DNA of 64,000 nucleotides from an uncultured Rickettsiales bacterium. GTDB taxonomy: Bacteria > Pseudomonadota > Alphaproteobacteria > Rickettsiales > CAZNNM01. How positions within the stretch are numbered: position 1 is the stretch's first letter; each line of letters starts with the position of its first letter. Below the pieces are notes generated by a model that ran no database searches, was not told the DNA's origin, and saw only the letters and a program-made list of their open reading frames with translations. The stretch is from contig CAZNNM010000009.1 of the NCBI GenBank assembly GCA_964574415.1, forward strand, positions 4,975-68,974, read 5' to 3'. Both the position numbers and the translations under genes were made by a program. Shown here piece after piece: positions 25,299-39,096 of the stretch.

Positions 25299-26612
25299 CT
25301 ATTGATATTGTGTTATTCTTAAATCAAAGATATTCCCATTAGCAAACCGTGACATGCTCTCAACATACATATCCGGCACCCGGAACTGTGTAGAACCCTC
25401 TAAGAAAATACCAAAATCACCACTGGCAAAGTTCTTAATCAGAACACTATTAGACGCTCCCTCATACACCTCATCAAAGGTCATAACGATCCCAGAACCA
25501 CTCGGATCAACAACACCCGCCTCATTCACCCGCGTAAAATACAACGTAACATCATCCCGAACCAACCGATAACGACCCTCAGCCTCCGCTATCTTCTCAA
25601 CAACACCTTCAACAGGGATTGTGGCGAACATAATCGTTCCACTGCGCTCCGCATCATCCACAACATCGTACCCGTTGTTATTATACGAAAAATAATACGT
25701 ATTCTTACCATGCGGATCGCGCAATAAATCATTGCCATAGCCGCCATCATGATGATCATCGCCATAACTGCCCAATAACGTGTCATTACCGCTCTGACCG
25801 TATAGCTCCACAGGCTGATACTCATTCGACGCATCCAAAACCTCTCCGTTCACGGTTCCTACATACGCCGTGTATTGGCCGTCGGGGAGTGATGCTACAA
25901 TTTTTGGTGTAGTAAACAGCGGCGAGGCAGGTATCTCCGTCATCTCCTCACGCACTTCTTGAAACGCCGTCAAAAACTCTGAAAACGGCCTTGTGCCATC
26001 AACGGAGCCGGGGATGTAACTCATGTCCAAATAAGAATCTATACCAGTACGGCTGCCCAGGGAGAGCGTCATGTTGTTTTGGATATGCGGCTCCTGACTC
26101 ATGATTTCCATGAGACGGGCGTGGTTGATCAGAGGGGCATCGTTCATGTGCTCTAACATGTTTAGTAAACTAAAGAATGCTGGCTTAATCTGACTTTCAT
26201 AATTATATGCCATATAAATGGCTGACCCAGCACCAACAGCAATTGCTGACACTACCCCAACTGATGCACCTAACACACCTCCAGCTATGAAAAGAACTGC
26301 CTCTGCTAAAACTTGCTGCGCAATCAGGCCGCCAAAATATTTATTGGTAGATGAAATAATGACTTCATAAGGATGCTCTAAACTCTCAGGATTTGATTTA
26401 AACTCTAAATAATATGATAGAACACCATTAGGAATTTCAAGCAATACCTTAACAGTCACACCAGCGGGACTCGCAGATAATAAGGTATTTAATGTTTCGG
26501 TTACAAATGCTGTAGAAACTGTATAGACACGAGCAAGGCAGTCAGGATCAGTTCGGCAAGCATCATCTGTCTCAGGTGCATTATCTGGCTCATTGTTTGG
26601 TGTATCTGGCAT
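25299..26612 (-). CDS. truncated paralogue B of protein A (different Gly-zipper-like head, RTX-like turn and first blade only)
   Basis: 437-aa ORF. From PKIVASLPDGQYTAYVGTVNGEVLDASNEYQPVELYG onward it is colinear with A aa ~230-450. It ends right after ANGNI with a cassette-encoded tail FDLRITQYQ*. Confidence 0.65.
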   Translation of the reverse strand: MPDTPNNEPDNAPETDDACRTDPDCLARVYTVSTAFVTETLNTLLSASPAGVTVKVLLEIPNGVLSYYLEFKSNPESLEHPYEVIISSTNKYFGGLIAQQVLAEAVLFIAGGVLGASVGVVSAIAVGAGSAIYMAYNYESQIKPAFFSLLNMLEHMNDAPLINHARLMEIMSQEPHIQNNMTLSLGSRTGIDSYLDMSYIPGSVDGTRPFSEFLTAFQEVREEMTEIPASPLFTTPKIVASLPDGQYTAYVGTVNGEVLDASNEYQPVELYGQSGNDTLLGSYGDDHHDGGYGNDLLRDPHGKNTYYFSYNNNGYDVVDDAERSGTIMFATIPVEGVVEKIAEAEGRYRLVRDDVTLYFTRVNEAGVVDPSGSGIVMTFDEVYEGASNSVLIKNFASGDFGIFLEGSTQFRVPDMYVESMSRFANGNIFDLRITQYQ

Positions 26613-26626
26613 TTTTTTCTCATTAC

Positions 26627-27127
26627 CTATATGTTAACTGAAAGATAGACACGTTTGGGCTTTATTGGGTCGTATATAATTTCGATTTTATCACCTTGAA
26701 TATACCCATATTCCTGCATTTTCTTGAGAGCCTTCTCATACATAGATGTATGATGCTTATGTAATCTTCCTGAGGAATCCACATACTCATAATAAATAGT
26801 ATGTATTGTTTGCTTTAGAATGCGTTTTAAAGACAGAGTTTTAGTAATTCGTGCATTGGTAATTATCCCTCTCTGTTTTAGAATCTTGTAATCTCCGGCG
26901 ATTTTAGCCCATATCAAGCCAATTAAGATCAAGAAAAGGATCAGACAATATATGTATATATAATCTAAATAACCTGGCGCGCTATTACTCTCCATCACAG
27001 AATAATTTTCTGCTATCTGTTGTGTTACTACATATAGCAACCCTGTAAACATTAGTATTACTACAATTCGATACATTATTTTACTTGTACTGTATATTTT
27101 TAATTCAGGTATTTCTTTTTTCTGCAT
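26627..27127 (-). CDS. small membrane protein, DUF3592-like (immunity-like candidate)
   Basis: I prefer the start at ATG 27127 (MQKKEIPELK), which is preceded by AGGAAG. It has two hydrophobic helices, then a beta-type segment ...YYEYVDSSGRLHKHH...GDKIEIIYDPIKPKRVYL, typical of DUF3592 by recollection. The 213-aa call (to 27268) reads through the upstream terminator hairpin. Confidence 0.6.
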   Translation of the reverse strand: MQKKEIPELKIYSTSKIMYRIVVILMFTGLLYVVTQQIAENYSVMESNSAPGYLDYIYIYCLILFLILIGLIWAKIAGDYKILKQRGIITNARITKTLSLKRILKQTIHTIYYEYVDSSGRLHKHHTSMYEKALKKMQEYGYIQGDKIEIIYDPIKPKRVYLSVNI

Positions 27128-27176
27128 CTTCAACTTCCTAATAAACCATACTCTATGACTGCACTTACAACAGTAC

Positions 27177-27205
27177 ACCATAGACAGCTTATCGTGCGTA
27201 GTCAA
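27177..27205 (-). promoter_or_regulatory. sigma70-type promoter, cassette copy 2
   Basis: On the minus strand: TTGACT, a 17-nt spacer, then TATGGT, about 50 nt upstream of the 27127 start. Confidence 0.55.
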
Positions 27206-27237
27206 TTTTCCTAAGTAGCCAATAAGTTGTATTTTTG

Positions 27238-27268
27238 TACAAAAAATAATGCAGATTTTTATCTGCAT
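27238..27268 (-). terminator. rho-independent terminator after fragment C (cassette copy 2)
   Basis: Minus-strand hairpin ATGCAGAT-aaaa-ATCTGCAT followed by TATTTTTTGT. Confidence 0.45.
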
Positions 27269-38014: not shown

Positions 38015-38028
38015 ATTAATTCTCTATC

Positions 38029-38410
38029 TTAGCTATGATTAAAAGTTAAAAACTGTTGCATGAACCATCCTAAAAGCAGCAACAACCCTCCCAAAAAACC
38101 GATTAGAATAACACTTACTCGTGTTAGAGTTTTCAGAAACTGGCTACTTGTATTGGCGCTGTTTTTCCATATTATAAAAAGTGCAAGTAAGCAGTAGCAT
38201 ACAGCTATAGAAAAATATATTGTACCAAACCAAAATTCATTATACCGACCAAATGCCTCATGAATAGACGGATACAGATAGCTCCACAGATAAATCATAG
38301 CTGTTACAAGAGCACTTGATACAGCTACCCCCCCAACCCCAGAACACAATCCAGAGCTTTTCCTCGCCTCTCCAACACCGTTTTATATGATTTACAAATC
38401 CAGACAACAT
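38029..38410 (-). pseudogene. frameshifted paralogue of the 36124..36528 membrane protein (G7 tract)
   Basis: ATG 38410 opens MLSGFVNHIKRCWRGEEKLWIVFWGWG, matching MSIVNHLKRCWKGEVRLWIVFWGWG in the paralogue. The frame is then lost at a run of 7 G on the minus strand (7 C on the plus strand, 38328-38334). The rest of the homologue (the 106-aa ORF 38029..38349) is in the adjacent frame, and G6 would restore a single ORF. Confidence 0.7.
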
Positions 38411-38442
38411 CTTCTCTTCCCATAGTTGTATTTCGCAACCGC

Positions 38443-38471
38443 ACCATACCTAACAGCCCAACCACTGTCAA
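38443..38471 (-). promoter_or_regulatory. sigma70-type promoter, cassette copy 4
   Basis: On the minus strand: TTGACA, a 17-nt spacer, then TATGGT, about 33 nt upstream of ATG 38410. GGAAGAG lies before the ATG. Confidence 0.55.
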
Positions 38472-38595
38472 CTTTACCGATTCACCAATAAGTTATACTT
38501 TCTGGCGGATATCCGCTCGCATGATGCTATAACTCTCTGGTATATAAAAAGAGTAATGGTTGTGTTTTTAGCGCTTTGGCATAAATAGAATATTG

Positions 38596-39096
38596 CTAGG
38601 CAGCTGATGAATACGTTGTATTCCCATTCGCCAAGGAAATCATCGCATCCACCCGTAAATCAGGAATAGCATAACGGCGCTGGCTCAAATCTATCCCAAA
38701 ATCACCGCTCTCATAACCCTTAACCTTGATGCTATGCGTAGAGTCCTGGGCTTGGATGACTAAATCTCCATTCTGAACGGAGACGCTATAGGTTTTTCCC
38801 TTATGGGTCGTGGTGCAGGATATTTCGCTGGCACATTCAAAGCTGCTTGTGCCGAACTGCCCTTCATCAATATCAATACAGTACGATGGCCAGTAAGCGG
38901 CAAGGTGAGATACGATGCAGGAAGGTGAATACCAAAATAGGTACTGACTTATTTTGAAATAATTGCCGTCATTTTTGGACTTGATCGGCGTTGTTGCATG
39001 GCGATAAAATACCCTGTCATCAGCCCAAGGATGACAAGCATTCATAACACCTATGTATTTTTCTAATGTTATCTTGGGACTGTCACATTCTGACAA
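38596..39096 (-). pseudogene. chimeric remnant ORF F (unrelated 5' part with MITE fragment, out-of-frame patch of gene A, E-like segment)
   Basis: nt 38874-38938 are identical to gene A nt 23033-23097 but are read in a different frame. Downstream, FGTSSFECASEISCTTTHKGKTYSVSVQNGDLVIQAQDSTHSIKVKGYESGDFGIDLSQRRYAIPDLRVDAMISLANGN is colinear with E. It ends with the tail TYSSAA*. nt ~38975-39000 match the MITE terminal sequence CTTGATCGGCGTTGTTGCATGG. Confidence 0.65.

Follow-up and report, generated by a model that had tools for sequence, protein, structure and literature searches.

Intervals between short direct repeats can be lost by slipped-strand mispairing or RecA-independent recombination, as at the deletion hotspots of lacI, and gene conversion with silent cassettes operates in systems such as pilE/pilS, vlsE and msp2. 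Among toxin gene clusters, the orphan toxin modules of Rhs and contact-dependent growth inhibition (CDI) loci become active when they recombine with the main gene (Koskiniemi et al. 2014, PMC3967940). Clusters for type VI secretion (T6SS) in Vibrio cholerae have been proposed to exchange effector-immunity modules by displacement, through homology-facilitated illegitimate recombination (Kirchberger et al. 2017, PMC5361080), and for strings of type VII secretion system (T7SS) immunity genes one report describes recombination between tandem paralogues (PMC9484751). In this work, a 64,000-nucleotide stretch of an uncultured Rickettsiales bacterium (contig CAZNNM010000009.1, positions 4,975 to 68,974, hereafter the window) was analyzed, and a tandem array of eight paralogous genes was found in it, three of which were intact (A, E and G) and five broken (B, C, D, F and H). 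The broken copies ended at the same short motif, and they were probably generated by ordinary homology- or microhomology-guided recombination within the tandem paralog array rather than by a dedicated insertion system.

Based on all-against-all BLASTP and self-BLASTN, the family was shown to be a mosaic. The head was either of a lipase type with the motif GHSLG (E and H) or hydrophobic and Gly-rich (A, B and G), and it was followed by an adaptor ending in (S/N)GDFG(I/V), a body with two NGN motifs, a proline/threonine (PT)-rich linker and a C-terminal region. The two NGN motifs were named m1 and m2 and were spaced by 69-86 codons. All five 3' truncations were located within two codons of m1 or m2. 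B ended at m1 with ANGNI and the tail FDLRITQYQ, F at m1 with ANGNTT and the tail YSSAA, while C and D passed m1 and ended at m2, with SGNA plus FDLRRAQHQ and with KNGNTV plus YSSAA, respectively, each tail being closed by a stop codon (Table 1). In the 499-aa gene H, the match to E is lost within SLG(N/D)G, following GAT GGG at 36553-36548. The proposal of a preliminary description of this DNA that the fragments break recurrently at conserved motifs was therefore borne out, as every one of B, C, D, F and H ended at or inside NGN. The same was true for two internal boundaries described there. The homology of D to E and H began with HLPNPEFQTG at about 28718, directly past the stop of G, where two in-frame stops precede the homology and the first start codon is found only at 28535; and the patch of gene A in F started inside the SGDFGI codons, being 65 nt long, 100% identical (23023-23087 = 38874-38938) and out of frame in F.

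The junctions of B, C and D were matched at 100% identity by the independent Logan assemblies L001, L084 and L085 (runs SRR9674365 and SRR9107545), which break only at the repeated module described below; L001 covers the junction of B and L084 that of C. These three junctions are therefore not assembly artefacts. For the array as a whole, chimeric joins at repeats that would make false truncated genes are an extremely unlikely explanation. The locus is indeed repeat-rich, and one exact tract of 450 nt between E and H is longer than a typical short read, so that the head-to-tail linkage across this tract could be swapped and is less certain than the other features. On the other hand, the exact repeats at the junctions are just 29-42 nt long, unique sequence flanks each junction on both sides, and the junctions were reproduced in the two runs.

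A k-mer census of all members and of the relative L082 (see below) revealed which sequences are still identical across the family. Only two words of at least 9 nt were common to 7-8 of the 8 sequences, namely GGTGATTTTGG, which encodes SGDFG, and (A)ATGGGAATA, which encodes NGN, whereas elsewhere the paralogs were 55-70% identical at the nucleotide level; the two islands are thus the only available microhomology. Both words were recurrent breakpoints. NGN was found at all 3' truncations and SGDFG at three mosaic boundaries, where A parts from B and C (identity falling from 83% to 35%), where D changes from an E/H-type adaptor to an A-type body (76% nucleotide identity to A), and where the A patch in F starts. 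The shared junction word of the preliminary description was recovered in part: ATTCCCATT had 8 matches in the window vs 1.06 expected, 7 of them in the family, but the word at the C junction is AGTGGGAAT, and the copy at 27606 that had been taken for the C junction is actually the uninterrupted m1 of C. The positions given there are shifted by 1-4 nt. Uninterrupted copies of the same 9-mer are also present at m2 of A and E and at m1 of D and C. Non-random breakpoints that reuse one short sequence were supported, and at least three or four separate events are required.

Two types of tail, type I in B and C and type II in D and F, were distinguished as had been claimed, and the 18-mer of type II had 2 matches vs 0.01 expected. 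The view of them as stand-alone, stop-providing caps had to be given up, since in all four cases they are the first 46-51 nt of a shared downstream module. In an alignment of the four capped ends, all of them entered this common module 46-51 nt after NGN, types I and II differing only in the 46-51 nt before the CAACC box and being homologous beyond it. The module was about 200-250 nt long and contained the CAACC box, a hairpin/terminator and a TTGACA-17-TATGGT promoter-like site. Its homology was compared with shuffled sequences (p~0 for B/D and C/D, p~0.013 for B/F). CAACC..TATCAATAA was found 3 times, AACTTATTGG..TTGAC 4 times and AACTTATTGGnnAnTTGGGAAAnTTGACA-17-TATGGT 4 times, vs 0 expected in each case; the last was called promoter-like in every copy, and a terminator-like stem with a T-run was present in both type I copies. 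What follows the module differs, being g291 after B, g213 after C, g106' after F, and C itself after D. The first six codons of C (MLYMAT) are those of g291, joined to a B-like segment beginning VMTFDE. From the arrangement of these elements, the caps are simply the front end of the repeated spacer that separates the units and not stop-providing elements in their own right. The C-terminal AA of the type II tail YSSAA resembles ssrA-type degron ends, which is a speculation.

The specific insertion or recombination process that had been suggested for these cassettes did not hold up. In this reading, a tail-led cassette would be inserted at AATGGGAAT by a recombinase or integrase-like enzyme, truncating the gene and supplying stop, terminator and promoter. 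The 9-mer at or beside every junction, the fixed offset of the tail from NGN, a type II tail conserved beyond its background and the GGG kept at a synonymous site speak for such an enzyme. Nevertheless, no recombinase, transposase or integrase domain was detected in the Pfam scans of most open reading frames (ORFs) of at least 150 aa in the window, neither terminal inverted repeats (TIRs) nor a target duplication was found, and the only four module copies were confined to the array, with no copy elsewhere in the window and no match of the module pattern in the metagenome contigs. Within this scope, the hallmarks of a transposable element, a miniature inverted-repeat transposable element (MITE) or an integron cassette, such as defined ends, a target-site duplication, a transposase or integrase and dispersed copies, were not seen; the MITE/TIR idea was rejected, only an internal CAATAAG/CTTATTG stem around the hairpin having been seen. 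No match was obtained in Rfam. Moreover, the motif was uninterrupted in A, E, D (m1), C (m1) and L082, H breaks at the same site uncapped, and the downstream part of the module is the functional 5' region of the next operon, varying in what follows. A dedicated site-specific process was therefore considered very unlikely.

The relationship between the junctions was revealed by pairwise comparison. Over 162 nt upstream of m1, B matched C at 90% identity, and over 157 nt running from the tail into the module the value was 86%; the two differed by a single in-frame gap of 258 nt (86 codons) from m1 to m2, whose ends in C read GGGAAT ATC TT and GGGAAT GCG TT. B is therefore a C-like allele minus the m1-m2 interval. 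In the other pair, F carried the type II tail at m1 and D at m2, with AATGGGAATAC common to both, and the exact 10-mer AATGGGAATA occurred at both m1 and m2 of D, 207 nt apart. F would thus represent the same kind of m1-m2 loss in a second lineage. The signature of deletion between short direct repeats was present in both pairs: GGGAATnnnTT stands at m1 as well as m2 of C, with a single copy retained in B, and AATGGGAATA occurs at both motifs of D and once in F. Differently, H broke inside m1 (GAT GGG / GGT...) and ran straight into the ribosome-binding region of g143, with neither cap nor module. On this comparison, at a minimum m2 would have received one or two founding joins, the m1-m2 interval would have been deleted twice, and one further deletion would have occurred uncapped, each of them at NGN. 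Inheritance from one duplicated segment, the alternative raised for the junction similarities, explained part of the pattern, e.g. the 86-90% identity of B and C on both sides, but not all of it.

These results suggested the following course, in which the order of events is inferred. One or two founding events would have fused m2 with a site that lies 46-51 nt upstream of the module between the units, and the founding junction would then have been copied with its unit by duplication, unequal crossing-over or conversion. Deletion between NGN direct repeats would have shifted the junction from m2 to m1 in two lineages, giving B and F, and H would be a separate deletion from m1 into the next small gene. 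Illegitimate or homology-facilitated recombination and slipped-strand deletion would land repeatedly on the two remaining identity islands; as only these two remain family-wide, recombination would therefore recur at SGDFG and NGN. The locus resembles known short-repeat deletion in that B compared with C, and F compared with D, appear to have lost the interval between GGGAAT-containing repeats 207-258 nt apart and to have retained one repeat. Unlike the usual case, the repeats here are codons of a conserved protein motif, and the same loss occurred in two diverged lineages. If this course is right, a few nucleotide-identical codons become the sole recombination sites of diverged paralogs, and breakage and domain shuffling become site-specific without a dedicated enzyme.

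Further exact tracts indicated exchange between the paralogs. E and H shared 450 nt at 100% identity (34696-35145 = 36590-37039) within flanks of 55-70%; this tract extends from the head/body junction to a point 13 codons short of m1 and is, as judged from its identity against the flanks, best described as a recent gene conversion. The 65-nt tract between A and F lay within the same 55-70% background. In F, TATTG closes the A patch and is repeated right behind it, which by inspection fits template switching. Taken together, the exact tracts of 450 nt (E/H) and 65 nt (A/F) pointed to ongoing gene conversion. The two 450-nt direct repeats lie 1,894 bp apart, and recombination between them would delete the H stub, g143 and the E head, leaving the H head fused to the E body. 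With silent-cassette systems the locus has in common partial copies beside intact genes and short exact tracts (65 nt and 450 nt), as seen in consensus assemblies. Unlike silent cassettes, the fragments here have promoters and complete heads, and the conversion signals are two shared words only.

The recurrent ends of the fragments could also reflect selection. In this explanation, truncations arise anywhere and only short proteins ended at NGN, i.e. head-only isoforms, are stable or useful, YSSAA being a selected C-terminal peptide. B, C and H are indeed intact ORFs with plausible starts, C is fused in frame to a promoter and a start codon, the shared body of B and C has an omega (ratio of nonsynonymous to synonymous divergence) of 0.04, and the type II tails differ by synonymous changes only. 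Opposite evidence came from the other members. D has no start codon and has stops in front, F is scrambled with its patch out of frame, and the changes in the type I tail are mostly non-synonymous (3.5 of 5 by the method of Nei and Gojobori, NG86; 3 of 9 residues differ). An AlphaFold model of the A body, built with 6 paralog rows and of low confidence (predicted local distance difference test, pLDDT, of 33; not used for fold search), placed NGN in a beta-hairpin turn and not at a domain boundary, and selection on the ends leaves the same word at the internal mosaic switches unaccounted for. Selection as the source of the pattern is unlikely on this balance.

Sequential displacement as proposed for the V. 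cholerae T6SS arrays (PMC5361080) was weighed as well. Here a foreign segment of module, small gene and head would anchor on the conserved body and join illegitimately at NGN, and the old head would be orphaned upstream. The locus resembles the V. cholerae clusters in its stepwise array, in which one side has a conserved anchor and the opposite side is joined illegitimately, in old remnants that stay in place and in the lack of an integrase. The intact gene comes last with truncated, older heads upstream, the heads and small genes are non-homologous between units, and adaptor-sharing relatives with other heads occur elsewhere, all of which speaks for displacement. The locus differs from the V. 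cholerae clusters in that in V. cholerae the immunity genes pile up downstream and the donor is demonstrably foreign, whereas here the junction ends are common to units. Reuse of an identical donor end (B/C and D/F) is unexpected for independent events, no compositional break was seen and no donor sequence was found in the collections searched. In addition, the m1-m2 segment of C was only about 28% identical to the matching segment of A, D or E, so the A body is not the continuation of the B/C lineage, and the candidate that it is the displaced continuation of B was ruled out. Displacement from outside was consequently regarded as quite unlikely. The T7SS immunity gene strings offer a likeness in one respect, since non-identical tandem paralogs evolve there by mutual homologous recombination; they consist of immunity genes of similar length, and the sections describing them report neither recurrent truncation at a codon motif nor a shared cap (PMC9484751).

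Several observations weighed against ordinary recombination as a complete explanation. The type II tail was 16/18 identical between D and F (27957-27974 and 38596-38613), both changes being synonymous, while its flanks were only about 57-59% identical; this is more conservation than simple co-inheritance predicts (p ~0.005 by our own arithmetic, calculated post hoc). The tails start at a fixed offset from NGN, which is +3 nt in type I and +6 nt in type II. The synonymous divergence (dS) of the B/C body was 0.55, which exceeds the divergence of tail plus module (14%), and the module side therefore looks younger or homogenised. The motif glycine was encoded by GGG in 10 of the 11 glycine-containing copies, compared with 21% GGG usage in the window ORFs, while GGT or GGC is found in the NGN motifs of an unrelated gene, that at 2419-11808. 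This is conservation at the nucleotide level, which may reflect repeated conversion or another source. The tails showed no similarity to the 3' ends of A, E and G, local alignments being no better than shuffles, so their interpretation as remnants of the natural ends of these genes was rejected; a resemblance of the type I NGNA-FDLR to A residues 359-366 (ANGNADLR) was unconvincing at the nucleotide level. The downstream partner sites of the type I and type II tails, i.e. of the founding events, and of the H junction were preserved in none of the sequences searched, and no orthologous array was obtained from a close relative. As words of 9-11 nt do not suffice for RecA-type exchange, several rare illegitimate events have to be assumed.

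Because of the conserved type II tail, the fixed tail offsets, the low module divergence and the unsourced tails, another reading was kept alive. Rather than debris, the truncated copies may be a stock of N-terminal heads that is kept up, every head coming with a protector gene and a promoter module of its own. Such cassettes could be swapped onto the single intact body through the shared words or tracts of the 450-nt type, as orphan-toxin switching in mirror image, with the YSSAA cap silencing or destabilising the unfused stub. We regard it as a tentative possibility on the unlikely side. If head fragments do re-fuse to the intact body, the orphan-toxin concept, which in Rhs and CDI concerns C-terminal tips, would come to include N-terminal heads whose protector genes lie upstream.

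All genes of the array lie on the minus strand, in the transcription order F, g106', H, g143, E, G, D, C, g213, B, g291, A. Two sub-arrays, F-H-E and D-C-B-A, are separated by G, and in each the intact gene closes the series with the truncated copies upstream. The distance from a small gene to the next large gene was -4 to 15 nt, compared with 160-250 nt, including terminator and promoter, from the preceding large gene to the small gene; therefore the transcription unit consists of module, small gene and large gene. On this layout, the array would be a series of units of terminator-promoter module, small membrane or lipoprotein gene and large modular gene. A, B, E and H were each closely preceded by such a small gene, the lipase genes E and H by the homologs g143 and g106'. 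For g291 the likely start is the ATG at 25127 (MATKLF) and for g143 the ATG at 36528. The listed start of g213 (ATG at 27268) falls within the module's terminator hairpin, at a position upstream of the promoter-like site, and the real start is probably an internal downstream ATG (MQKKEIPELK...). The frameshift of g106' sits at a C7 run (G7 on the coding strand, 38328-38334) and could be a sequencing error, a pseudogene mutation or a slippage-prone tract. For annotation, caution is advised, given that five of the eight family genes are fragments and that a listed ORF start, that of g213, falls inside a terminator hairpin.

Table 1. Positions in the window of the array members, NGN motifs and tail-module segments.
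Feature	Positions	Strand	Description
A	20077-24264	-	intact, 1395 aa; hydrophobic Gly-rich head, RTX-like adaptor, SGDFGI motif, A-type body, PT-rich linker, C-terminal region
A m2	22795-22803		AATGGGAAT
g291	24261-25136	-	small gene, lipobox-like N-terminus (LVSC); stop overlaps A start by 4 nt
Type I tail + module P_B	25120-25331	-	tail FDLRITQYQ and stop 25328-25299; CAACC box 25282-25254; hairpin + T-run 25253-25233; TTGACA-17-TATGGT 25190-25162
B	25299-26612	-	truncated paralog, 437 aa; head and RTX adaptor up to m1; stop 25301-25299
B m1 (junction)	25340-25332		NGN
g213	26627-27268	-	small protein with 2 transmembrane (TM) segments, weak DUF3592 match; 14 nt upstream of B
Type I tail + module P_C	27201-27347	-	86% homology to P_B, ending at TTGAC
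C	27315-27779	-	g291-type start (MLYMAT) fused to B-like segment (VMTFDE...), unique 86-codon m1-m2 segment, m2 and type I tail; stop 27317-27315
C m1	27606-27614		uninterrupted
C m2 (junction)	27348-27356		SGN (27356-27348 in reading direction)
Type II tail + module P_D	27763-27980	-	YSSAA and stop 27974-27957; CAACC box 27923-27895; promoter 27833-27805; runs into C start codon
D	27957-28718	-	headless, startless fragment: lipase-type adaptor, then A-type body, m1, cut at m2, type II tail
D m1	28188-28196		uninterrupted
D m2 (cut)	27981-27989		NGN (27989-27981 in reading direction)
G	28733-31933	-	intact, 1066 aa; different head: hydrophobic Gly-rich segment, VWD-like
E	31981-36108	-	intact, 1375 aa; lipase head (GHSLG)
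E m1	34651-34659		AATGGAAAT
E m2	34441-34449		AATGGGAAT
g143	36124-36555	-	small 3-4-TM protein, 15 nt upstream of E; overlapped by last codons of H
H	36515-38014	-	499 aa; divergent lipase head and adaptor; breaks inside m1
g106'	38029-38410	-	g143 homolog, frameshifted, 14 nt upstream of H
Type II tail + module P_F	38441-38619	-	YSSAA and stop 38613-38596; promoter 38471-38443
F	38596-39096	-	scrambled: about 160 nt of unknown origin, 65-nt A copy, E-like adaptor (38889-38620), m1, type II tail
F m1 (junction)	38620-38628		NGN (38628-38620 in reading direction)

The possible products of the array were examined by domain and database searches. The heads of E and H contain GHSLG, for this lipase type the Pfam family Lipase_3 gave a weak match, and the remote homologs are annotated as lipases; besides this match, Pfam scans of A, B, E, G and H gave only weak RTX and VWD-like matches. 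Hydrophobic Gly-rich segments were present in A, B and G, and the C-terminal 329 aa of G were 71% identical to E. From these features we infer that the large genes encode polymorphic toxin-like proteins with interchangeable N-terminal heads and that the small upstream genes are putative cognate protectors. The comparison with Rhs and CDI orphans is then informative. As in those systems, fragments beside an intact paralog share a high-identity stretch with it (E/H, 450 nt at 100%; the island of A, B and C at 83-90%), a small adjacent gene is linked to each fragment, recombination could join the variable domain of a fragment to the intact gene, and a gene of the two-partner secretion (TPS)/CdiA type, accompanied by an orphan copy of itself, is found in the window at a distance of 10 kb. 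The arrangement is nevertheless a mirror image, with the variable head at the N-terminus, the small gene upstream, and the fragments upstream and cut at the 3' side. No YD/Rhs, VENN or PAAR features were detected in the five proteins scanned, so that an Rhs/CdiA core, of YD/Rhs repeats with PxxxxDPxGL or of FHA repeats with VENN ahead of a C-terminal toxin, is lacking among them. A common short tail is not a feature of Rhs/CDI orphans, and the toxin and immunity roles are here putative.

The TPS-type gene is a minus-strand gene at 2419-11808, encoding 3129 aa with a TPS secretion domain, haemagglutinin repeats and a C-terminal GHSNG motif. It is followed by a 244-aa ORF (1725-2459) with a lipobox-like LLLSAC, and past this an ORF of at least 573 aa, 89% identical to 3540-5247 of the 3129-aa gene, runs off the window start. 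The layout at 1-11808 resembles a CDI/TPS toxin with an orphan module.

The family had no characterised relatives. An exhaustive HMMER search with the A body returned only paralogs of the same genome, generic RTX proteins and a few distant adaptor-sharing proteins. Among the latter, P0025 has a phage-lysozyme head (PF00959, E = 1.6e-6) and P0040 a lipase head. A word-index protein search with full-length E found only E itself and remote lipase matches, and no match was obtained for the E protein against one genome per species, for the E sequence against PDB, or for the E/G C-terminal alignment against the metagenome contigs. Uninterrupted relatives, which had been sought for reconstructing the events, were, for the H/E type at least, obtained. 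Another hit of the HMMER search, P0046, was an E/H-like protein of other samples, encoded on contigs L082 and L083 (runs SRR21902431 and SRR21902432), with a nucleotide identity of 73% to E and, within the adaptor, 80% to H. These copies run uninterrupted through m1 (GGG AAT GGG AAT ATC) and m2 (GAT GGG AAT), and H matches L082 up to GAT GGG. The L082 copy itself (3475-5570) is headless, its sequence beginning at DFGGSDRYENV with small, unrelated ORFs in front, and is frameshifted near 4600-4635. As it is both 5'-truncated and frameshifted, fragmentation of the family is not peculiar to this genome.

Other features were observed in the window outside the array. Internal repeats with a period of 108 nt and 73-83% identity were found at 18988-19342, in a 344-aa plus-strand ORF (18968-20002), and at 40240-40536, in a 798-aa gene with an mTERF-like Pfam match (39189-41585), and the segments 13393-13464 and 39391-39462 were 79% identical. 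A CopA-CopB-DUF2231 operon (41769-46026), with DUF411 and an extracytoplasmic function (ECF) sigma factor nearby, showed 70-81% protein identity to Micavibrio-like and other alphaproteobacterial metagenome-assembled genomes (MAGs; loci L002-L081). A scan with CopA gave 80 loci, from Micavibrio-like MAGs and others, in which synteny was limited to the cop operon and no member of the array family was found; as no other window gene was syntenic in these loci, a mobile copper-resistance cassette is suggested. Finally, two beta-ketoacyl-acyl carrier protein (ACP) synthases, a flavin-dependent halogenase/reductase-like protein, an MMPL-type transporter and an acyltransferase are encoded at 53343-63831, a cluster which we take to resemble an aryl-polyene-type lipid biosynthesis cluster.

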